From assembly GCA_050331735.1 (NCBI GenBank), contig JBHJGN010000037.1, forward strand, positions 1 through 64,000: a stretch of DNA of 64,000 nt, read 5' to 3'. The DNA is from Cyanophyceae cyanobacterium (GTDB lineage Bacteria; Cyanobacteriota; Cyanobacteriia; Cyanobacteriales; JBHJGN01). Below the pieces are notes generated by a model, which worked only from the letters and a program-made list of their open reading frames with translations, did not search any database and had not been told where the DNA came from. The position numbers were made by a program, and so were the translations under genes. Shown here piece after piece: positions 51,087-63,060 of the stretch; position 1 is the first letter of the stretch, and each line of letters begins with the position of its first letter.

Positions 51087-52424
51087 TTAACCCTTTTTAT
51101 TAATGACCATTTTGACTCTACCTGACGGAGCAAGGGTCACGCCTCGTCGCTGCGGTTGTTCCGGTTTACTGCCAACCAAATCTAGCTCATAGTGTTTCAG
51201 GATTGTTGCTAGAACGAGCTTCATTTCCAACAGCGCTAGCGCATCGCCCACACAGCGACGAGAACCGCCACCAAAGGGCAGAAACTCCCAGTTGGCATAC
51301 TGGCGTTCTAGAAAGCGCTCTGGCTGAAACTGTTTGGGATGGGGATAAAGCTCTTCACGCTGATGCACTAAGTAAATACAGCCCATGACTGCCGTTCCCG
51401 GCTCGAGCGGATGACCCATCAGCTCGACTGGTTCTTGAGCAATTCTGGGAAACATGAGCATGGCTACCGGATAAATTCTTAAAGTCTCCTGACAGACGGC
51501 GGTGAGGTAGGGAAGTCGCGCGATGCTCATCGGGTCTTCATCAGCGCTAGCTAGCTCCTGAAGTAATTGTTCTTTGACTTCTGGCAAAAAGTGGCTCCAG
51601 TATAGCGCCCAAGCCATTGCTGTTGCTGTGGTTTCATGTCCAGCAAACAGCAGCGTCATCAGCTCGTCGCGCAGTTCCTGGTCGGTCATGGGGTTTCCCG
51701 CTTCATCCCGCGCCGATAACAGGAGAGAGAGAATGTCTTGGCGTGTTGACTCAGCCTGGGCGCGACGCTGGGTAATTTCAGCGTAAAGAAGTTGATCGAG
51801 CTGCTGCCGTTGATGCACGAAATATTTCCAGGGATTCCAGGGGAGAAAATCCTGCTGGAGAAAGCGAAAGAAGAGAAAGCTGGAGGTTAGGGGAGAGCGA
51901 AAGATCTCGGTCATTGCAGCGAGCAGTTGCTTGAGCTGCTGGCTGGCCTCGCCCTCATGGAGTCCAAAAACAGCTTCGAGAATGACCTGTAAAGAAATCT
52001 GCTGCATCACCGATCGCGCTGAGCAAGGCTGACCGACCTCTAGCTGATTCATCACCGACTTGGTGATGTGGCAAATCAGCTCGCCATAGGTTCGCAGCCG
52101 TTCTCCATGAAAAGGAGGCATGAGTAGCTGCCGTGCTCGCCGATGGCGATCGCCTTCGCGCATGATGACTGAATACTCCCCCACCAAAGGCTCAATGAGG
52201 CGGTTAGCGTAACCAGGAGCTAAAAACGTGCGGCGCTCCTGCATTAGTTGCTGAATGGCCTGGGGATGGCTAACAAACACCAAGTCGCCAAGGGTGAAGC
52301 CAATTTTGGCGGTGAAAAAATCGTCGTAGCGCTTTGCGGCTCCTTCCATAAAGCCGACGGGATTAGCGATCCAATGGGCAAGCTGGACGGGAGCAGGAGA
52401 TGATAGCAGGTTAGGAGAGGGCAT
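51087..52424 (-). CDS. Cytochrome P450 (CYP110-like)
   Basis: AGHETTA, ETLR, PERF and FGGGSRRCVG motifs; start taken at ATG 52424. Confidence 0.95.
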   Translation of the reverse strand: MPSPNLLSSPAPVQLAHWIANPVGFMEGAAKRYDDFFTAKIGFTLGDLVFVSHPQAIQQLMQERRTFLAPGYANRLIEPLVGEYSVIMREGDRHRRARQLLMPPFHGERLRTYGELICHITKSVMNQLEVGQPCSARSVMQQISLQVILEAVFGLHEGEASQQLKQLLAAMTEIFRSPLTSSFLFFRFLQQDFLPWNPWKYFVHQRQQLDQLLYAEITQRRAQAESTRQDILSLLLSARDEAGNPMTDQELRDELMTLLFAGHETTATAMAWALYWSHFLPEVKEQLLQELASADEDPMSIARLPYLTAVCQETLRIYPVAMLMFPRIAQEPVELMGHPLEPGTAVMGCIYLVHQREELYPHPKQFQPERFLERQYANWEFLPFGGGSRRCVGDALALLEMKLVLATILKHYELDLVGSKPEQPQRRGVTLAPSGRVKMVINKKG

Positions 52425-52551
52425 AGGCTCTGTTAAATCAGGTATCAGTAACCAGTTATTGGCGAGCAATTCATGAAGTTAACTAGTCACTCACTAAGCA
52501 CTATAGCTGAACACTCAGCACTGTCCATCGGTAACTGCTCACGGGTCACTG

Positions 52552-53922
52552 TTAAATTGAGCTAACGGTAGCCTGAGTAGAGGGGTGAGAAACGCGATCG
52601 CCCGTCACCACTAGCGGCACCTCGTTGGCTGGGGCAATGGTTAAGCCGCGCCGCGCTGCCTTGATGGGCTTATTGTCTCTCAGAGCAAGCTGGTAACGGG
52701 AGAGAACGGTCGCCAACACTAGGGTCATTTCTAACATAGCAAGGGCCGCTCCTAAACAGCGACGATTGCCGCCACCGAAAGGCAGAAATTCGTAAGCAGA
52801 ATACTGACGCTCAAGAAAGCGCTCTGGCCTGAACTGCTTGGAGTCTGGGTAGAGGTCTTTGCGGTGATGAATTAAATAGATGCAGGGGAAGAAGAGCGTA
52901 TTCGCTTCATACTGGTGTCCCATTACTTCTACTTCAGAGCGAGCAATACGAGGAAACGTCACCGGAACCACGGGATAGATGCGCAGCGTTTCTTGGCAGA
53001 CAGCGGTCAGATAGGGAAGACGGGCGATCGCCATTGGGTCTTCTACTCCATCTAGTTCTTGCAGCAGCTTGTCCTGGACTTGAGGATGCTGGCAAATCCA
53101 GTAGAACGCCCAGGCAAGAGCCGTTGCCGTGGTTTCGTGTCCGGCAATGAGGAGCGTGAGCAGTTCGTCTTGGAGTTCTTCGTCGGTCATGGCTTCACCC
53201 TGCTCATCTCGCGCCGCCATCATCAGGCTAAGCACGTCTGTACCGCTGCTATGGCAAGCGCGGCGCTCCTCAATTTCTGCTTGCAGCAGAGCGCGAATTC
53301 GCTGCTGGCGCTGCTGAAACTGCTGCCAAGGACTCCACGCCCCCCACTTTTTTTGCAGCCAGGGAAAGAATAGGGGACTAGAGCGCAGAGGCGAATCGAA
53401 CATATTGAGCATTGCTGCCAGTAGTGGCTTGAGCTGCTCGTAGCGATCGCCTTCGGCCAGGCCAAATACCGCCTGAAGAATTACCTCTAAGGTAATCTCC
53501 TGCATGGCAGCGCGAGCTTCAAACGGCTGCCCCACCTGCCACTGACTCGCTACCTGCTCAGTAATCTGGCAAATAATATCGCTATAGGTGCGAATACTTT
53601 CACCATGAAAGGACGGCATCAGCAGTTTGCGATCGCGGCGGTGGCGATCGCCATCGAGCACTATCAAAGAGTTTGCTCCCACTAGCGGCTCAACGATATC
53701 ATTACCCCGTCCAGCATCAAACTGTCTGGCATCGACACTGAGGATTTCCTGGACCCCTTGAGGATTACTCATTAGTACAAAGGGTTCAAAGTTGGCTAAG
53801 CGCAGGGTAAAGGTATCGCCATAGCGTTTGGCACACCTCTCCAAAAAATTTAACGGATCGGCGACCCAGTAGATGAGCTGCAATAGGGAAGGAATTCTGG
53901 GACCACTTGGTAAATAACTCAT
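52552..53922 (-). CDS. Cytochrome P450 (CYP110-like)
   Basis: AGHETTA, ETLR, PERF and FGGGNRRCLG motifs. Confidence 0.95.
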   Translation of the reverse strand: MSYLPSGPRIPSLLQLIYWVADPLNFLERCAKRYGDTFTLRLANFEPFVLMSNPQGVQEILSVDARQFDAGRGNDIVEPLVGANSLIVLDGDRHRRDRKLLMPSFHGESIRTYSDIICQITEQVASQWQVGQPFEARAAMQEITLEVILQAVFGLAEGDRYEQLKPLLAAMLNMFDSPLRSSPLFFPWLQKKWGAWSPWQQFQQRQQRIRALLQAEIEERRACHSSGTDVLSLMMAARDEQGEAMTDEELQDELLTLLIAGHETTATALAWAFYWICQHPQVQDKLLQELDGVEDPMAIARLPYLTAVCQETLRIYPVVPVTFPRIARSEVEVMGHQYEANTLFFPCIYLIHHRKDLYPDSKQFRPERFLERQYSAYEFLPFGGGNRRCLGAALAMLEMTLVLATVLSRYQLALRDNKPIKAARRGLTIAPANEVPLVVTGDRVSHPSTQATVSSI

Positions 53923-54023: not shown

Positions 54024-56750
54024 CTAAATACTGTATGATTTTGGTGCTTCGCAACATACGCGAAAGCCGAAGGTGAAGTCGCGGCTTATATGCGTTAGGT
54101 AGAAGCGAAAAGCAGAACGGCAAGATTCTGGACCATAGAACCAGCAACCGCCTCGCAGCACCTTTCTATTGTCCGCCGTATTTTTTTCTAGCCATGTCCT
54201 GCCGTCTTCTGGTGCTCCTTTGTAATTACTATGCCAGTCATCTTCGCACCACTCTGATACGTTCCCATGCAGATCGTGTAATCCCCAATGATTGGCAGGA
54301 AAGCTTCCTACGTCAGTTGTTTGTTCCCGGTATTCGCCTTTCGGACTACCTTTGTAGGTAGCGTTTCCATTGTAGTTAGCGAGGTTTGTCGTTATTATTC
54401 TACCGAAGTGAAAAGGAGTATTTGTTCCGGCTCGGCAAGCATACTCCCACTCTGATTCACTGGGTAAGCGATAGTTTTTTCCTGTTTTGGCTGACAACCT
54501 CCTACAAAACTCTACTGCCTCCTCCCAACTCACCTCCTCTACCGGATGATTGTCTCCTTTAAAGTGAGATGGATCGAAGTCAAGCGCTCGATCGATTTGT
54601 GACCAGGCAGCGACAATACGCCACTGTGCCTGCGTTATTGGGTAACGTCCCAGGTAAAAGGCTGACAGAGTTACCTGATGTCGAGGTTGTTCCCGGTCAC
54701 AATCAAGTTCTACGCCTTCAACTTCATTTCCTGGGGCTCCCATGACAAAGGTTCCACTTGGTATAGAGATCATTTCTAGTCCAATCTCTTCATTAAGAAC
54801 TTCAGTGTAGCCCCAGTTAGTAGCGCGGCGGCGAACGATTGCTAATTGTCCAACTTGACTAGAGGGGGAACTGAACGAGCCTCCACGTCCTTGCCATTCT
54901 ATCTGGGCTGTCTCAAACTCGAATCGCTCCAATATATGGGTAATTTTGGCTGGCTCGTACTCAAAATCTTGTAAAGGCGGAAAGTTAATGAATTCGGCGA
55001 CTTCGTATTCAATATCTTCGAGGGGAAGCTCTTTGGTCGTAGTTGTGTTTCCATTGAGGAGAGAATAACGACGAGCCAGAGTCGCATAGTCGCCTCCAAG
55101 ACGGCAGAGCGTATTAAGACCTACCCGTGCAAAGGGCAGCGCAGCTTCGCCCAAATTATGCTCTGACTCCTGCAAGTAAACAAGAAATGCTTCAAAACTG
55201 TTGAGGCTGAGACCCGCTTTCTGACTGATGACCTGCGATAGACGATTGAGGACGCTAACGGCTTTGTCTTCCGGCAATCCATCCAGGAGCAAATAGCGCA
55301 CGCGATCGCTCGTATCTGTTGCTCCATCCCCGAAAAACTCATAGTGAGTTTCCTCATCTTCTGTATCGCAGCGCCGCAGTAACCCGCTCAGCAATACTTC
55401 TGCAACATGGGCTTGCTGTGCTTCTGGGAGAAACTCATCCCGCAGGAGGTCGATGACGGGCAAACTGACAGAGGTTGCCGCCATCAATCCGGCCAGTTTC
55501 TGCGCCGTTTGGGATGCCGTTGCCTGAAACAGGGCAACCCGCTGCCGTGCCGTCCGGGATGTCAGTGATTGCAAAGCGGGAGTTTCGGTAGCACGTTCTC
55601 GCACAAACGCCAGTTCAAAAGTTCGCCCAGGGATAGGTTCTCCTGTCCCTGCCACTACCTGTGCCCAGCGATGAAGAGGATTCGGATCGAGGGTAACGAT
55701 AGGCAGCGTCAGCAGGCGCTTGTCTATGGGTTGTAAGGACTCTTCCTCGTCTTCTGCCCACTCATCCCTGTCATCGAGGATTGGCAGCCCGTACACCTCT
55801 AGCTTGGCGTTGGGCGTTCCTGGACTGATTGAGCTTAATTGCACTCGATATCCATCGCTCAGTGCCGTTCGTCCCCATAGCCGCTCCGGGAGCATCTGTA
55901 CAATGGCAATGGGCTGCACCTCCGACCATCGCCGCAGGGTTTCGTGAATTAGCCCCTGTCGCCACAGCGCTGACGTACAGTCAGTGACGAATAGCACCAG
56001 TCGTCTGCCGCTGGGGTCGAGGATTTCTTTGGGGTTCCGGGGGCGTTGACTCGTTTTGGATTGAGTTTTGAAGGTATTCCAGCGGGGAAAAAGTTGGACT
56101 GTGCTATTTTGTGCTTCGAGTCGCCAGGTTCGTACTGTCCGAAAGGCGCCGTGGTATTCGGTGAGATGTTGCAGCTCAGCAATCGCTCTTTCCCACAGTA
56201 CTGTCGTCTTTGAGCCTTCTACGACCAAATCTAGGTCAAGCCAGCGTTCGGGACGGGGGCGTTTTCTAGGCATCCACACGCGGGTTTCGGCAATTTGCGT
56301 GACGGTTTCCTCTTCATCGAGGTCGAACCTTACTTTCGACGGGACTTTTCGCATCAGGGGCTTGAGAGATCGCGCTAGGTCGAGGCGCGTCCGTAGCGCT
56401 GGCGCTGCTGTGGCTGGAAACGGCATGCCTGTGGGTTGTTCTGCTGAGCGATCGTCCTGAACTGAGGCTGGCTCTGAAACTGATTCCGATCCAGAGGGTC
56501 TGTCTGTGACTAGAGCGAAGTCTGATTGCTCGGCGGTTGACGTTTCAGTTATTTCAGGGAGTGGCGTTGTCTTCTCTCTCTTGGTTTGCTTATTGTCGAT
56601 GTCCTGACGCACTGCTGCTCTCGGCTCGATAAACTGAGTGAGCCAGAGGATATCGGCAATATCTACGGCGTTAACGTCTAGCCCAGACTGCTTTAACCTG
56701 GACGCGAACTGTCCGATTGTTGGTCTTCGCTGCTGCTCAAATGTTTCCAC
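54024..56750 (-). CDS. SAV_2336-type vWA-like N-terminal domain fused to a C-terminal FGE-sulfatase (CLec) domain
   Basis: IADILWL, LARSLKPL..LDEEETV..PERWLDLDLVV, LFVTDCTS..W and LPERLWGRT, then RLPSESEWEYACRAGT..DLHGNVSEW..LRGGCW..GFRV. Confidence 0.88.
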   Translation of the reverse strand: METFEQQRRPTIGQFASRLKQSGLDVNAVDIADILWLTQFIEPRAAVRQDIDNKQTKREKTTPLPEITETSTAEQSDFALVTDRPSGSESVSEPASVQDDRSAEQPTGMPFPATAAPALRTRLDLARSLKPLMRKVPSKVRFDLDEEETVTQIAETRVWMPRKRPRPERWLDLDLVVEGSKTTVLWERAIAELQHLTEYHGAFRTVRTWRLEAQNSTVQLFPRWNTFKTQSKTSQRPRNPKEILDPSGRRLVLFVTDCTSALWRQGLIHETLRRWSEVQPIAIVQMLPERLWGRTALSDGYRVQLSSISPGTPNAKLEVYGLPILDDRDEWAEDEEESLQPIDKRLLTLPIVTLDPNPLHRWAQVVAGTGEPIPGRTFELAFVRERATETPALQSLTSRTARQRVALFQATASQTAQKLAGLMAATSVSLPVIDLLRDEFLPEAQQAHVAEVLLSGLLRRCDTEDEETHYEFFGDGATDTSDRVRYLLLDGLPEDKAVSVLNRLSQVISQKAGLSLNSFEAFLVYLQESEHNLGEAALPFARVGLNTLCRLGGDYATLARRYSLLNGNTTTTKELPLEDIEYEVAEFINFPPLQDFEYEPAKITHILERFEFETAQIEWQGRGGSFSSPSSQVGQLAIVRRRATNWGYTEVLNEEIGLEMISIPSGTFVMGAPGNEVEGVELDCDREQPRHQVTLSAFYLGRYPITQAQWRIVAAWSQIDRALDFDPSHFKGDNHPVEEVSWEEAVEFCRRLSAKTGKNYRLPSESEWEYACRAGTNTPFHFGRIITTNLANYNGNATYKGSPKGEYREQTTDVGSFPANHWGLHDLHGNVSEWCEDDWHSNYKGAPEDGRTWLEKNTADNRKVLRGGCWFYGPESCRSAFRFYLTHISRDFTFGFRVCCEAPKSYSI

Positions 56751-57775
56751 AGTCGTTCGATGAGGTCGTCTGGAGTATGAACATTGTCACTTACGTTGGG
56801 TGCTCGTTCGCGGGTAACCAGATAGATAGCGTTGAGGAGCTGGTCTGTTGCTAAGTCGCCTTTGCTGCGGTCGTTGCGCTTGTTGACAAACCGCGTGATC
56901 AGCTGCTGGATCAGTTCTTCCGATTGGGCAATTAGCTTTTCCCCATCCTTTTCCTGCTTGAGGTGAGCTTTGACAATGGCTTCGAGGCGCTCTTCGTCGG
57001 GTTCTGCCATTGTTAGCCGCACGCAGCGACGTAAGAAGGGAGGCGGAAAGTCTCGCTCGCCGTTACTGGTTAGAACCATCAGCGGAAACTGCTGACTGGT
57101 AATTTTGCCCCCCTTAATAGTTGCTGTCGTATCGGCAAAGGTAAATTCTTGTTTGTCTTTATAAGCTGTTCGTACCGTCACCTCTGGCTTTTTCTCTTCA
57201 ATTCGCACCAGTTCCGGTATTTCAAACTCCCCTTCTTCAAAAACGGTGAGCAGATCGTTGGGCAGGTCGATATCGCTTTTGTCGATTTCGTCTACGATTA
57301 ACACGCGGGGCTTGTCAGAGGGGAGAAGGGCAGTTCCGAGGGATCCCAGACGAATATAGTTGCCGATATTGTCGAAATTGCCCCGCTCTTTCTCGCCAAC
57401 ATCCTGCAAGCGCGCGATCGCATCGTAGAGATACAGACCGTCCTTGAGGGTAGTCCGGGTGGTGATCGGCCAGTAGAGCACCTCTCCGAGGTTCAGTTCG
57501 CGGGCGATCGCATAGGCGAGGGAGGTTTTGCCGCTGCCCGGTTTGCCCGTTACAAGCAAGGGTCGCCGCAGATACAGCGCCGCATTCACTAGCTCGATTT
57601 CCTGGGGCTGAGCCTGAAACGTTTTTCCCCGTTCCTGCTTGCGACGGTCAGACTGTCTCCAGGGAGGGGGAGGAGGTAGATGGGCGAGCGGGTCTAAGCC
57701 TGGATCTGGATTGGGTTCTCCGGTTCCTTTGAAGATGGGCTGAAAAATTGGCTGAATCTTAGGCTGGTCGTTCAT
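56693..57775 (-). CDS. MoxR-family AAA+ ATPase
   Basis: LRRPLLVTGKPGSGKT, YDAIARL, LIVDEIDKSD, TSNGERDFPPPFLRRC and ATDQLLNA motifs; start taken at ATG 57775. Confidence 0.93.
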   Translation of the reverse strand: MNDQPKIQPIFQPIFKGTGEPNPDPGLDPLAHLPPPPPWRQSDRRKQERGKTFQAQPQEIELVNAALYLRRPLLVTGKPGSGKTSLAYAIARELNLGEVLYWPITTRTTLKDGLYLYDAIARLQDVGEKERGNFDNIGNYIRLGSLGTALLPSDKPRVLIVDEIDKSDIDLPNDLLTVFEEGEFEIPELVRIEEKKPEVTVRTAYKDKQEFTFADTTATIKGGKITSQQFPLMVLTSNGERDFPPPFLRRCVRLTMAEPDEERLEAIVKAHLKQEKDGEKLIAQSEELIQQLITRFVNKRNDRSKGDLATDQLLNAIYLVTRERAPNVSDNVHTPDDLIERLWKHLSSSEDQQSDSSRPG

Positions 57776-57779
57776 GACC

Positions 57780-59570
57780 TTAACAAGCCTCCTGATCAAA
57801 TTGCAGGTCCATCGTGGGCGGCACAATCTTCGCATCTTCCCAAACTAGACTAAGATGACCCCCCAGGCAATGGTTGTCATCTTCCCTCAGTGCGTCGAGC
57901 CTTTCTTCATAAATTCGCTGAGGGAGTTCGGCTACGGTGCGGTCTAGGATACGATCAACTTCATGACATAGTTTTGAGTGTCTTACCCACAGTGCAACAG
58001 GGAGTGCTGTTTTTCTAGCGATAAATTCAAAGACGCTCTCAACTTGCTCTGCTGATAAATTTTCCAGGATTGCCATCTCAGCAGTCTTTAATCCCAACAG
58101 TTCTGCATTTTTTGTTGTATCAACCCAGACGAATGTTTCCCGCGCAGTATGTTGTGATTTCGCTTCTATATGCTGCCATTTATCTTGCCAGCGCCTAAAG
58201 TACTTCTTCCCCGTCGGTGATTGGTTGAGATCGGTTCGCATTACCACTTTATACTGACTTCCCAGGGTTAAATCTGACAACGTTTTAGAGGAGTCGAAAT
58301 CGCGATCGAGCCAAGCACGCGGCACAAAAAAGTGAACCATTGGCTCGTTTAAGGTCGATTTCTCTTCTAGGCAAGTTTCAACGAAGTCTGGCAAATCTGC
58401 ATAGGGAAGAGTATGTTCTTGCAGCAAGTAGGGCAATGGTTCTTGCGGGTTGTAGGTATGGCGATCGCTAATCTCCCACATTGAGATCCAAACCTTTTCC
58501 TTGTCTTTTTCGTCTGGTCTCACTTCTACCACTAAATGTTCGGACGAGTCAGCGGAAGAAACGTTGCGCTCTCGTTTTTCTAAGATGGCGCGGCTCTGCA
58601 AGCTATCGAAGTAAAATCCGCGATACTCAACCCAATTTTTAATTTGTTGGTACATGGAACCCGATACCGCATCCATTGTTGCCAGAAAAATTGCAAACTG
58701 TGTCAGTCGATCAACGTTATCCCAACCGCGATTTCCTAACTGGCTCAAGCTTAGCAGCCGCGACTGCAACATCTTTTTCTCCCCCCAGACAGAACCAGAA
58801 TCGCAGAGGCGAAAGGCGGTGGCGATCGCACTGCTGAGTTTCTGCTGGTTGTCATTAGAAAGTTGTTGCAGATGGTTTTCGATCAGATCGCACAGGCTAT
58901 AAACACTAAGTTTTTTGAGAACGCCGTCTAGCTCTTTTTTCGGAATGGCGTATGCCTTGCTTCTTTGCTCATCTCTGGAGACTAACGCCGTAGCAATCAT
59001 GCCAATGACGCAGGTTCGTTGTTCATTCCAAACAGGTGCGCCGCTAAATCCTGCTTGAATTGTTTCATCGTTGGGATTACCTGCTTTATAAAACTGAAAG
59101 CGTCCTCCAGCAGTGCGTATTTTGGGAATGTATGCATCTGAGCGCTCACCGTTTTCATTGCTAAAGCCATAAACAGAATGTTCGTCGTTTTCAATATCTG
59201 ACAAACTGACTTGAACAAGCGGAATTGGCTTAGATTCACTCGGTTCCGCTTTGAGTAGTTTTAACCCAGCAACATCCCCTCGACTGACGCTATAAGGGAG
59301 CCAAGCTACCACTTTTGCCTTAATTTTGTCCCCGTCAGCGAGAATAGGAAAATCGAGGAATACCAGTTCTTTAACGACTTCTTTGTAAGAAGCAGATTTT
59401 TGTTTGTCAAAGTCGATACCGACCGCCTGTAAGACAACGTGGGCGCAAGTCAGCACGTAACCAGGAGCCACTAGGAATCCCGTCCCGATCGCCGTCTCTG
59501 TGTCTTGGTAGAAAATCCGCGCAATAGATTGTTCGTAATCTTCCCAAGTGAAAGTCACTTCTTCTGCCAT
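57780..59570 (-). CDS. Trypsin-like serine peptidase fused to vWA-MoxR-associated protein (VMAP) domains
   Basis: Intact triad motifs LTCAHVV / DVAGL / GFSGAPV; C-terminal LPVALWVR..HLSLVWED typical of VMAP-C. Confidence 0.85.
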   Translation of the reverse strand: MAEEVTFTWEDYEQSIARIFYQDTETAIGTGFLVAPGYVLTCAHVVLQAVGIDFDKQKSASYKEVVKELVFLDFPILADGDKIKAKVVAWLPYSVSRGDVAGLKLLKAEPSESKPIPLVQVSLSDIENDEHSVYGFSNENGERSDAYIPKIRTAGGRFQFYKAGNPNDETIQAGFSGAPVWNEQRTCVIGMIATALVSRDEQRSKAYAIPKKELDGVLKKLSVYSLCDLIENHLQQLSNDNQQKLSSAIATAFRLCDSGSVWGEKKMLQSRLLSLSQLGNRGWDNVDRLTQFAIFLATMDAVSGSMYQQIKNWVEYRGFYFDSLQSRAILEKRERNVSSADSSEHLVVEVRPDEKDKEKVWISMWEISDRHTYNPQEPLPYLLQEHTLPYADLPDFVETCLEEKSTLNEPMVHFFVPRAWLDRDFDSSKTLSDLTLGSQYKVVMRTDLNQSPTGKKYFRRWQDKWQHIEAKSQHTARETFVWVDTTKNAELLGLKTAEMAILENLSAEQVESVFEFIARKTALPVALWVRHSKLCHEVDRILDRTVAELPQRIYEERLDALREDDNHCLGGHLSLVWEDAKIVPPTMDLQFDQEAC

Positions 59571-59872
59571 TTCAGCGTTATTTCGTAATTTGCCTCTCCG
59601 CCAACCTTGGTGAGTACCGCCCCTACTTCACCGTTGAGCTTAACACTAAACTTTACCTCTACCTCGTCTGTCGGCTCGATGACTGCATCTAGCTTTTTCT
59701 TGACCGATTGAATCATAGGCAGCAGGTTATCTAAAGCCTGAGCGAAAGTTTTTCTCGCAGTTGCAGCTATCTCGTTGGGCGCCCTCGAAATCGGTCGAAT
59801 TTCTTCGACATCTTCAACTTCAACAAGAATTCTTCCGCCTTCACCCGTGTCGAATTCGACAAGCTGTGCCAT
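59555..59872 (-). CDS. CU044_2847-family / Trypco1 (trypsin co-occurring) small protein
   Basis: ILVEV..PTDEVEVKFSVKL..EANYEITLKW; overlaps the peptidase start. Confidence 0.85.
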   Translation of the reverse strand: MAQLVEFDTGEGGRILVEVEDVEEIRPISRAPNEIAATARKTFAQALDNLLPMIQSVKKKLDAVIEPTDEVEVKFSVKLNGEVGAVLTKVGGEANYEITLKWQKK

Positions 59873-60023
59873 TAGCTAAACGTCTCCTGAAATCACTTCG
59901 GCAGTAATACCTCAATAGTTTATACAGTAGTTGCCCCTGAATTTCCGTATTTTTTCTCAAAGGAGATCAAAAAATAAATCGACTCGCCGTTAGGTGAGAA
60001 ATCAAAGGACCAAGAGAAAAGGG

Positions 60024-60899
60024 CTAAAGTGCCTGAGCGCCAAAAGTCCTCGGCATCTTGCAACACACTCGAACACCGATATCTTTGAGGCGGTAGTCAC
60101 GCAAATCCCCGTAGCGGTTAGTAGAACGGCAATTCTTCGGATACACGAGCCAAGAACCACCCCGCAGAAGCTTATCAGTATCTGTCGCGTTCTCCTCTAT
60201 CCATGCGCTTCCATTCACTGGTGCTCCTCTATAGCTATCATGCCAATCATCTTGACACCATTCCCAGACATTTCCGTGCATATCGTGTAGTCCAAAATTA
60301 TTTGGGGGAAAGATACCTACTTCTGTCGTTTCTCTTCGGTATTTTCCCACTATGCCTTTCCCGTAAGTTCCTTTATAAAGAGTATCGCCAATCTTTTCGT
60401 CCTGAGCGCGATAGTTTGCTAGTTCGTCACTCAGTGTTTCGCCAAAATGAAAAGGAGCTTTTGTCCCCGCTCGACAGGCATATTCCCACTGCGCCTCGCT
60501 GGGCAGGTGGTAGGTTCTACCTGTTTTGACTGATAATCGCTGACAAAACTCTATCGCCTCTTCCCAAATCACATTTTCCACGGGACGGTTGTCTCCTTTA
60601 AAGTGCGATGGATCTGAGTTTAGCTTGCACTTGTCTTTGGGCCAGTTGGCAACGATGCGCCATTGAGTTTGGGTGACAGGATATCGCCCCATCAAAAACG
60701 ATGAAACTATGACTTCATGTTGCGGTCGTTCATCGTTGTAACTTTCCAGTTCATCTTCCGGTGCTCCCATCAGGAATTTGCCACTAGGAATCAGCACCAT
60801 ATCCAAGCTAACTTCGTCACTGAGGGTTTCGATGAAGTGTTTGCCCCTGCGCCGATAGCGGCTGACGAGAATACGTTTTTCGGCGGTTTCTTCTGCCAT
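60024..60899 (-). CDS. Stand-alone FGE-sulfatase (CLec) domain protein
   Basis: LPSEAQWEYACRAGT, DMHGNVWEWC and LRGGSW motifs; start taken at ATG 60899 (frame open to 60974). Confidence 0.92.
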   Translation of the reverse strand: MAEETAEKRILVSRYRRRGKHFIETLSDEVSLDMVLIPSGKFLMGAPEDELESYNDERPQHEVIVSSFLMGRYPVTQTQWRIVANWPKDKCKLNSDPSHFKGDNRPVENVIWEEAIEFCQRLSVKTGRTYHLPSEAQWEYACRAGTKAPFHFGETLSDELANYRAQDEKIGDTLYKGTYGKGIVGKYRRETTEVGIFPPNNFGLHDMHGNVWEWCQDDWHDSYRGAPVNGSAWIEENATDTDKLLRGGSWLVYPKNCRSTNRYGDLRDYRLKDIGVRVCCKMPRTFGAQAL

Positions 60900-61085
60900 T
60901 TGTTGGAGCTGCGTTTTGGACCGGACCACTGAATTTAATGTCCGGTTGGATAACTCTTGGGAGTTTCCTACCAAGAAGCCCTAATCTTACCTTAAAGCGC
61001 TGGCGAATGAATTGGTGGACTACAAACCGTAATCCGCTATTAGAGTTTCCAATTTGAGGAAAGCGATCGCCCTGAGAAGTATATA

Positions 61086-61439
61086 TTACGGCTGCTGCTC
61101 TCCTGCTAGCCGAGAGAGCGATTGAGCAATGCTAGCCATGTTCTCAGCAAGCGTAACTCTATCTTCATTGAAACCTTGAATGATTTCAAACATAGTTGCT
61201 TGATGAGCTGTTAATGCCGAAACATCTCTAGTTAACTGTGCTATTTGAGCATCGGTTCGCCGACGGTCACGAACGACATCTGAAGTTAAAGCCTCAATGG
61301 CCTTAGCATTAGAGTTAATCCTGGCATCAGTCTGAACCGACTGCTGAGCCAATTGCTCTAGCAAAGCTTCTATTCTGTCGAGGCGATCGCTTGGCGTTCC
61401 CGAAGGGCGATCGCCTCCATCGGGATTAGTTATCGGCAT
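61086..61439 (-). CDS. Hypothetical coiled-coil protein
   Basis: 117 aa, DRLDRIEALL..NAKAIEAL heptad pattern, GGAG RBS upstream. Confidence 0.7.
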   Translation of the reverse strand: MPITNPDGGDRPSGTPSDRLDRIEALLEQLAQQSVQTDARINSNAKAIEALTSDVVRDRRRTDAQIAQLTRDVSALTAHQATMFEIIQGFNEDRVTLAENMASIAQSLSRLAGEQQP

Positions 61440-61594
61440 ACTCCTAGCAATGTTTACTGTCTGATTGTTGTCTATTTCCTTGGAGATAGCGATCGCCTTC
61501 AGAAGGTACGGTCTCGTATGTTTTCATCCTAATGCTTTCTAAAAAAAATTAGACTCGTCTAACGGCGAGATATCAAAGGGCTAACCCCTAAAAG

Positions 61595-62437
61595 CTAAGG
61601 GCTAAAGTGAAGAATCCTCGGCACCTCGCAACACACACGAAACCCAATATTGCCGTAGCGGTAGTAGCGTGGATCGCTGCGGCGGTAAGCAGAACGGCAA
61701 TACCACGGAGCGCTGTTCCAAGCACCGCCCCGCAGCAGCTTGTTAGTCTGCGTTCCGCCTGCTCCCAGCCACGCCCTACCGTCTACTGGTGCCCCTTCAT
61801 AGCTATCATGCCAGTCATCTTCGCACCACTCCCACAGATTTCCATGCATGTCGTGTAATCCCCACCGATTGGCTGGAAAACTTCCTACATCCATCATCCC
61901 ACCTCGATATTTTCCTTCGAGGCTGCCGTTGTAAGTTTTCGTAGTGTCGTAGCTCGCCAACTCTGCCGTAATCATTTCGCCATAGTGGAAGGGCGTTTCT
62001 GTTTCTGCCCGACAGGCGTATTCCCACTCGGCTTCACTCGGTAGGCGATAGCTTCTCCCCGTTTTCGCTGATAGCCGCCGACAAAATTCCTTAGCGTCTT
62101 CCCAGCTCACCTGCTCTACAGGTCGATTCTCGCCTTTAAAGGTCGATGGGTTTCGCTCTAGCTCCCGCTCAACTAGCGGATAACCTGCCACCACGCGCCA
62201 CTGCGCCTGAGTCACCGGATACCGCCCCAGCAAAAACGACTCCAGCTTCACTCGATGTTGCGATCGCTCGGAGCCACTACTTTCTGGCTCACTCTCTGGT
62301 GCGCCCATCAAAAACTCACCCGCCGGAATAAGCATCAGCGTCAGGGTTACGCCCTCAGCCAGTTGTTCGTGCAGGCATTTATTTCTCCGTCTGTACCGAT
62401 GGAGCATTAGGCCAGAACTGGCAGGAGCGTTAGTCAT
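61595..62437 (-). CDS. Stand-alone FGE-sulfatase (CLec) domain protein
   Basis: RLPSEAEWEYACRA, DMHGNLWEWC and LRGGAW..GFRV motifs. Confidence 0.93.
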   Translation of the reverse strand: MTNAPASSGLMLHRYRRRNKCLHEQLAEGVTLTLMLIPAGEFLMGAPESEPESSGSERSQHRVKLESFLLGRYPVTQAQWRVVAGYPLVERELERNPSTFKGENRPVEQVSWEDAKEFCRRLSAKTGRSYRLPSEAEWEYACRAETETPFHYGEMITAELASYDTTKTYNGSLEGKYRGGMMDVGSFPANRWGLHDMHGNLWEWCEDDWHDSYEGAPVDGRAWLGAGGTQTNKLLRGGAWNSAPWYCRSAYRRSDPRYYRYGNIGFRVCCEVPRILHFSP

Positions 62438-63060
62438 CTACCAGCCCTTAACACTTGTTCAGCCGTCAGTTTCAAATCCGGGAAGGTTGGAGAGACAATG
62501 GTTTGCTTACCCCGAAGTTTCTGAATTTCATACTCCTCATTCACTAGCATACAAACAGAGAGGGTAGGCTGTTTGGGCTTGCCAATATGTCGAGTACCAC
62601 CTAATCCGGCGTAGTCTGCAATCCAATATTCGGGAATACCTAAAACCGCGTAGTCTTCGACCTTACGGGCATAATCATTTTGCCAGTTGCTACTAACGAC
62701 TTCCGCTACAAATTTAATCGAACTACCCAGCGTCAGGATCGACTGGTCAGACCAAAGCAGTTCTTTAGTCAATTCATCTCGATCAACAACTGCAACATCA
62801 GGTCGAAATGCTGTCATGCCAGTATTAGAGGGGCGAAATAGACCCCGCTGAAGAACAAACCAATCTAAGCCTATGCTGTCGATGTGAACACAGACCTTTG
62901 CGGTAATGAAGGCTGCAACCTCTTCGTGCAAGCCTGTTGGTTCCAAGTCGAACACCTCTCCATCGATCAGTTCATAACGGTTATAGCTACCATAACAAGC
63001 AAGAAACTCGTCAAAGCTAAGTGGCTTTTGCTGTATTGGTTGATTGATCGCAAGGGTCAT
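62434..63060 (-). CDS. Uma2-family (DUF820) PD-(D/E)xK endonuclease-like protein
   Basis: YELIDG, RPDVAVV, EVVSSNW..DY..K..Y..LGIPEYWIAD; ATGA overlap with the FGE gene. Confidence 0.92.
   Translation of the reverse strand: MTLAINQPIQQKPLSFDEFLACYGSYNRYELIDGEVFDLEPTGLHEEVAAFITAKVCVHIDSIGLDWFVLQRGLFRPSNTGMTAFRPDVAVVDRDELTKELLWSDQSILTLGSSIKFVAEVVSSNWQNDYARKVEDYAVLGIPEYWIADYAGLGGTRHIGKPKQPTLSVCMLVNEEYEIQKLRGKQTIVSPTFPDLKLTAEQVLRAGR

Follow-up and report, generated by a model that had tools for sequence, protein, structure and literature searches.

The question raised by this locus is whether the 3' ends of three related sensor genes are being rewritten today by a diversity-generating retroelement (DGR), were rewritten by one in the past, or owe their unusual codons to another process. 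The window referred to below is the whole stretch analysed, 64,000 nucleotides of contig JBHJGN010000037.1 from a Cyanophyceae cyanobacterium (assembly GCA_050331735.1), and the three genes, called A, B and C here, lie within positions 54024..62437 on its minus strand. A preliminary description, made from the letters alone, had assigned their 3' ends to the variable repeats (VRs) of a DGR located elsewhere in the genome. Our analysis leads to a different answer. A, B and C are probably orphaned and decaying former DGR variable regions, from which the cassette of reverse transcriptase (RT), template repeat (TR) and spacer has been lost, and the sensors look frozen and not actively diversified. 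The genes and their VR-equivalent ends are listed below, with nhmmer scores against a profile hidden Markov model that was built from 22 TRs of relatives (TR profile).

54024..56750, minus strand: gene A, 908 aa, the long sensor, with a SAV_2336_NTERM-type N-terminal region and a C-terminal FGE-sulfatase domain (C-type-lectin fold)
60024..60974, minus strand: gene B, 316 aa, an FGE-sulfatase domain alone (short sensor paralogue), PF03781 at E 5.3e-53
61595..62437, minus strand: gene C, 280 aa, an FGE-sulfatase domain alone (short sensor paralogue), PF03781 at E 2.4e-50
54042..54163, minus strand: VR-equivalent of A, the most decayed of the three; TR profile 33.9 bits; 19/24 codons ending in C or T; 3' flank motif largely gone
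60042..60171, minus strand: VR-equivalent of B, intermediate in decay; TR profile 46.5 bits; 18/24 codons ending in C or T
61607..61740, minus strand: VR-equivalent of C, the best preserved of the three; TR profile 64.1 bits; 21/24 codons ending in C or T

The three codon strings that had been quoted, their LRGGxW anchors and their coordinates were found to be correct, and all of them are C-terminal ends of PF03781 domains. These domains cover model positions 4-253 or 5-253/255 in A, B and C and score 172-181 bits against a cut-off of 23.3 (in gene A, residues 659-898, E 5e-51 in the Pfam scan). For the codon comparison, eight of the nine FGE domains of the genome were aligned, namely A to C, D to F from a second locus on contig C1, G on contig C11 and H on contig C62; the most divergent copy, on contig C15, was left out. 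The segment compared comprises the 24 codons that GGxW and GFR enclose. Pairwise differences among A, B and C at codon positions 1, 2 and 3 amount to 42, 36 and 25 of 72 in this segment and to 163, 134 and 341 of 615 in the remainder of the domains, so the normal codon-position pattern is inverted. The ratio of first- plus second-position to third-position differences was 3.12, a value reached by none of 212 sliding control windows of 24 codons (maximum 2.0). The counts of C/T-ending codons given above compare with 46%, 46% and 37% elsewhere in the domains of A, B and C. The earlier statement that the variable codons change mainly at positions 1 and 2 and tend to keep C or T at position 3 was thus confirmed.

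Part of this pattern would also be expected if A, B and C were ordinary paralogues on which a DGR had never acted, and which were under selection for loops rich in Tyr, Asn, Asp, Ser and Phe (NNY codons) and for a conserved CRSxxR scaffold. Many of the variable residues are indeed Y, N, D, F or S, whose codons must end in C or T, and paralogue H, which is not DGR-like, also has 17/24 codons ending in these letters. Since a C/T wobble is obligatory for Tyr, Asn, Asp and Phe, the test was restricted to residues of three- to sixfold degeneracy in variable columns. Among these, 18/25 codons end in C or T, compared with 76/180 elsewhere (Fisher one-sided p=0.005), and the third-position excess in A, B and C therefore exceeds a pure amino-acid effect. 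Moreover, paralogues G and H show no inversion of codon positions (13/11/14 of 24). Together with the non-coding flanks, the locus architecture and the spacer relic described below, these facts make selection on ordinary paralogues an unlikely explanation.

The scaffold codons had also been described as identical down to the wobble letter. The codons are as quoted, but their identity is weak evidence, because the scaffold TGCCGTTCT is the commonest variant in the whole family (6/22 TRs, 11/46 VRs and 22/83 other ends), which would suit ordinary paralogues as well. Wobble identity of the scaffold was therefore rejected as a sign of one shared TR. At columns with an invariant residue, codons are identical in 5/9 cases within the segment and in 24/95 outside it for A, B and C (p=0.07), and in 4/9 versus 3/56 for all six paralogues (p=0.005). 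The latter enrichment is what gene conversion among paralogues (concerted evolution) could produce, since it would keep scaffold codons and wobble letters alike with no retroelement involved. However, gene conversion would even out every codon position, whereas here positions 1 and 2 are the most divergent part of the domain (58% and 50%), and it leaves both the C/T wobble bias and the match to the AAY template codons of relatives unexplained. This process is thus a highly improbable source of the pattern. The codon signature of A, B and C is real yet degraded. Their third positions differ in 25/72 cases, compared with 6/72 for D, E and F, and A, B and C are therefore unlike VRs that are now written from one template.

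The origin of the signature was traced in 30 genomes of the same order, three of which (G006, G012 and G022) were examined in detail. All three hold a long FGE target with an RT and a TR, the cassette adjoining the targets, and the mismatches between TR and VR are specific to adenines (for example 13/13, 18/20 and 20/23). The variable codons of A, B and C align with AAC/AAT codons in the TRs of these three relatives, which bears out the AAC/AAT-rich template that had been proposed as their origin. In a wider scan of 77 cyanobacterial loci, a DGR-type RT match was found in 26, and a pair test detected A-biased TR/VR pairs in 25/80 related loci, with 7-23 mismatches over 61-133 nt. On this scale, 80-90% identity to its VR is to be expected of a live TR, a level well within the detection range of the searches run on the present genome. 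By homology and descent, and by signature, A, B and C appear to be DGR-type variable regions, and we infer that diversification once acted on these three genes themselves. In the course of events that we propose, the RT of an ancestral DGR would have copied an AAC/AAT-rich TR, with adenine-specific errors, into the last ~125 nt of A, B and C, a rewriting that would have changed codon positions 1 and 2 and left the C/T wobble in place. The RT-TR-spacer cassette would later have been deleted from the lineage, so that the binding-site sequences were frozen, and the ends of the three genes would now drift as ordinary DNA.

The genome in question was binned from a metagenome; its 99 contigs total 5.57 Mb, with a completeness of 99.98%. 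The RVT_1 family (PF00078) matches one gene alone in this assembly, an RT-Cas1 fusion at C26:836-1456, which runs off the end of contig C26 and adjoins large type III-like CRISPR-associated genes (C26:1-8000). A tblastn search with the DGR RTs of three relatives gave no match in the genome besides this same gene, at 26-30% identity. The RT-Cas1 gene was rejected as a possible RT source on account of its Cas1 fusion, its place beside type III CRISPR genes and this low identity to DGR RTs. The Avd family (PF05635) had no match in the assembly.

For the TR, a blastn search of the whole genome with word size 7 and the 3' ends of A to F returned paralogues only, and the best non-self match to A, B or C was itself a paralogue (78% over 59 nt). 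A regular expression for the scaffold, applied across the genome, matched seven FGE genes only. The windows picked out by a 28-codon scan for AAC/AAT richness were scattered, contained 9-10 such codons and lay away from any FGE-like site, compared with a median of 11 such codons in real TRs. The TR profile matched only eight FGE 3' ends in the genome, with no separate TR among the matches. A DGR spacer RNA was likewise not recovered in the window, where the best nhmmer match had a local E of 2.4 and the best match of a covariance model had 6.1 bits (E 5.7); this last match, at 60950-60990, just upstream of the start of B, was taken as noise. The proposal that a DGR in another part of the genome writes the three ends was therefore not borne out. 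With neither a TR nor a DGR RT found in the assembly they are relics, by the rule that the preliminary description itself had laid down, and its DGR interpretation is partly supported, in that it holds only by descent.

The three ends have decayed to different degrees. Across 41 verified VRs of relatives, TR-profile scores range from 41.0 to 85.7 bits with a median of 61.8, and against this range A falls below all, B within the lowest 15% and C near the median. The eight FGE ends of the genome score 88.7 (E), 64.1 (C), 63.6 (D), 58.3 (F), 46.5 (B), 33.9 (A), 28.1 (G) and 22.7 bits (H). Within the window the decay order is C < B < A, and the 3' flanks can be read alongside it. Verified VRs end in ..AGG and continue into ACTCT..TAGCCCTT and CT-rich repeats, whereas TRs diverge after ..AGG into the conserved spacer CACTCTTC...GAAGAGTCCAGACC... 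Genes B and C retain the non-coding 3' flank of verified VRs (..AGG|AYTYT..TAGCCCTT), which A has mostly lost. In B the flank CCGAGGACT...TTTAGCCCTTTT is kept with an insertion, and in C the flank CCGAGGATTCTT..TTTAGCCCTTAGC resembles those of verified VRs. This resemblance past the stop codons of B and C argues against ordinary paralogues as the explanation. The predicted hairpin energy downstream of the VR proved to be a non-discriminating test (median -5.3 for verified VRs and -4.3 for others; A -2.5, B -3.9, C -3.8).

The same history is seen more freshly at a second locus on contig C1, which is the more promising site for signs of recent DGR activity:

C1:115134-124143 (L002:5135-14144): second VMAP/MoxR locus, with trypsin+EAD1, EAD1+VMAP-C, an AAA_5 ATPase, the long FGE gene D and the short FGE genes F and E

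The FGE proteins of this locus have 896 aa (D), 290 aa (F) and 272 aa (E). Pairwise differences among them at positions 1, 2 and 3 are 38, 22 and 6 of 72, all 17 of their 17 degenerate-residue codons end in C or T, an A occurs in 25 of their 28 variable nucleotide columns, and the VR 3' flank motif is intact in all three. In gene F (C1:115134-115293), 10 inserted nucleotides after GFR cause a frameshift and bring the open reading frame (ORF) to an early end, and TGGCGCGAGGACTCTTCAGCCCT downstream of the insertion is still conserved with D and E. Conservation past the frameshift points to a putative cis element acting at the level of DNA, similar to the initiation of mutagenic homing (IMH) site, rather than to constraint on the protein.

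A candidate remnant of the cassette was also found at this second locus. In cyanobacterial DGRs the TR is followed by a strongly conserved spacer of ~140 nt, CACTCTTC...GGGAAT...GAAGAGTCCAGACC...GCATCCGAAAA...GGTAGCTTGGTAG (loci L003-L080), with predicted nested helices, and our spacer model R1 also matched partial copies in L018, L061 and L081. The profile of relatives' spacers gave a single match below 0.01 genome-wide, at C1:123223-123296 (L002:13195-13314; nhmmer E 0.008). The match ends ~30 nt before the ATG of the short target E, and the full-length covariance-model match reaches to ~10 nt before it; relatives likewise carry the spacer upstream of their short target. The spacer covariance model found the same site with 16.5 bits (E 0.011 over 83 kb), its first helix being degenerate. 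We read this weak but positionally apt match as a probable relic of the deleted DGR cassette, and a relic of this kind at the sister locus is a further point against ordinary paralogues. The freezing of the C1 copies may be recent enough for the population to be still polymorphic for the cassette. Taking both loci together, we tentatively suggest, as a possibility that we would not put at even odds, that one TR lineage once served the six FGE sensors of both VMAP loci, and that loss of the cassette turned them into a fixed, 'germline-encoded' repertoire of six specificities with graded decay in the order E, C/D, F, B, A. If this is true, the six FGE ends would show, as a natural time series, what becomes of DGR-written binding sites once their writer is lost.

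An alternative in which A, B and C are no relics is that a functional DGR (RT, TR and spacer) on an unbinned contig, a plasmid or a prophage rewrites A, B and/or C in trans. Reads bear on this alternative through contigs of three sequencing runs of one study. Only one run, a stromatolite metagenome (X1) that may be the source of the genome, holds the stretch; in it a single 9687-nt contig spans the stretch with 0 differing letters, and no variant letters are listed in the three VRs. Besides the genome's own, none of the contigs of the three runs is at least 80% alike on the VR bins of A and B. In runs X2 and X3 the coverage is limited to conserved parts of the FGE and ATPase genes and comes from other organisms, so that it is uninformative on the present one. 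Active rewriting in trans also fits poorly with the failure to find RT, TR, Avd or spacer at 99.98% completeness, with the score of A below every verified VR, and with the many positions at which A, B and C differ and which would not be adenine in any shared TR (62-68% mutual identity over 116-187 nt, with the third-position differences given above). Furthermore, the cassette adjoins its targets in the three relatives, whereas here the A/B/C and C1 loci are each contiguous on contigs of >100 kb without it. We therefore hold active remote diversification to be quite improbable.

Several points nevertheless weigh against the reading of A, B and C as frozen relics, and the first two of them speak for rewriting in trans. 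The main caveat is that the genome is a metagenome bin of 99 contigs, and a cassette might lie on an unbinned contig or an episome. The score of C is that of a typical live VR and IMH-like flanks persist in B and C, which could perhaps still take up cDNA from a cassette supplied to them. Rare variants are lost in Logan contigs, on which the read test was run, and the clean single contig over the three VRs therefore says little against diversification that is still going on. On C1 the match to the spacer is weak (E about 0.01), and it lies outside the window, in which no relic was found. Finally, the C/T-wobble signature fails to separate live from orphan copies, its median fraction being 0.88 in 46 verified VRs and 0.84 in 83 FGE ends without a TR in the fetched locus. 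It follows from these two values that an active DGR should not be called from a VR-like signature alone. The codon signature left by a DGR is legible in the raw sequence and outlasts the retroelement.

Between and beside the three sensor genes, the remaining members of the cluster are as follows:

56693..57835, minus strand: MoxR-like AAA+ ATPase, 380 aa, PF07728 AAA_5 at E 3.3e-09
57780..59570, minus strand: VMAP component, a trypsin-like peptidase fused to VMAP-M1 and VMAP-C, 596 aa
59555..59872, minus strand: Trypco1 adaptor protein, 105 aa, PF19493 Trypco1 at 3.7e-22 and NF041216 (CU044_2847 family) at 3e-18
61086..61439, minus strand: 117-aa ORF between C and B, a possible member of the system, without a Pfam family; sub-threshold NCBIfam match at E 0.0095

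The 596-aa VMAP component matches PF20028 VMAP-C (2.4e-26), PF13365 Trypsin_2 (3.5e-12) and PF19963 VMAP-M1 (4.6e-06). In gene A, residues 29-513 match NF041121 SAV_2336_NTERM with 397.6 bits (NCBIfam cut-off 200), and no Pfam vWA domain, the type of domain that marks one component of the ternary systems, was found in residues 1-650, even at E<=10. The cluster is a VMAP/MoxR 'ternary' conflict-type system with the architecture described by Kaur et al. (2020, eLife, PMC7159879). The locus in relative G006 contains, in this order, a 619-aa ORF in the trypsin-VMAP position (placed by position alone), the ATPase, a 971-aa FGE target, the RT, the TR and a 272-aa FGE target. The arrangements in G012 and G022 are equivalent, and G012 shares with G006 the upstream ATPase and the short FGE target after the TR. 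That the architecture of the window is the one found at RT- and TR-bearing loci again disfavours ordinary paralogues. A, B and C would act through predicted ligand-binding FGE-sulfatase (C-type-lectin-fold) domains, A as the long sensor and B and C as stand-alone sensors. Following the published prediction for the family, the lectin-fold domain would bind a ligand, possibly derived from an invader, the MoxR-like ATPase would transduce the signal, and the trypsin-VMAP protease would provide the output.

Loss of the RT is not restricted to this genome. There were 37 long-target loci, 6 of which had too little flank; in the 31 whose downstream flank was at least 2.5 kb, a full RT lay within 3 kb downstream in 15, RT fragments in 2 and none in 14. 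In this sample of homologous loci, RT-less and RT-bearing copies are thus nearly equal in number. Five genomes with RT-less loci were searched, and four of them had no DGR RT at E<=1e-20 with the query used, one of these four being a complete chromosome. The fifth, Leptolyngbya sp. PCC 6406 (L031), has a homologous long FGE target without an adjacent RT, and its DGR-type RT (G032:C3:95779-97325) is split in two by an in-frame TGA, which is an intermediate stage of DGR decay. Locus L018 retains a 61-aa RT fragment and a partial spacer. While these two decaying loci keep RT remnants, the locus in the window has none, and the C1 locus has only the spacer relic of ~75 nt.

Comparable systems have been reported. 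According to Kaur et al. (2020), ~80% of the cyanobacterial and gammaproteobacterial VMAP ternary systems are DGR-linked, and by Dore et al. (2024, PNAS, PMC10907252) the system was re-interpreted with the lectin-fold domain as the sensor and its RT was placed in clade 5E. The present locus resembles the DGR-diversified VMAP-MoxR systems of these two papers in having Trypco1, a trypsin-VMAP protein, a MoxR-like ATPase, a long target with C-terminal FGE and short FGE-only targets, and further in the position of its variable segment, its AAY-derived codon pattern and its VR 3' flank motif. It differs in that RT, TR and spacer were not found here, which would place it in the unlinked minority indicated by the figure of Kaur et al. 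A closer parallel is all3226 of Nostoc sp. PCC 7120, which according to Vallota-Eastman et al. (2020, PMC7517822) is a CLec/FGE paralogue with a VR-like end and no proximal RT. Remnant TR-VR homology in such a paralogue, with removal of the diversifier after selection as the proposed cause, is already in print there. However, the genome of all3226 still has two DGRs as well as the TR-VR homology, whereas the present genome has neither RT nor TR, and a TR-VR comparison is thus impossible here. For the biology of VMAP/MoxR systems, the present case offers a whole-genome example in which loss of the cassette would have left six frozen sensor paralogues. The TR-spacer (model R1) and VR-flank motifs can serve as a practical probe for live and dead cyanobacterial DGRs.

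Genes of the Uma2 family (PF05685), encoding putative endonucleases, flank the short FGE genes at both VMAP loci. The one at 62434-63060 of the window (minus strand) overlaps the start of gene C, and three adjoin gene F (L002:3178-5093). Directly downstream of gene A, at 51087-53922 (minus strand), there are two tandem paralogues of ~460 aa, both with the motif FxxGGGxRRCxG, which we take to be the haem-binding motif of cytochrome P450.

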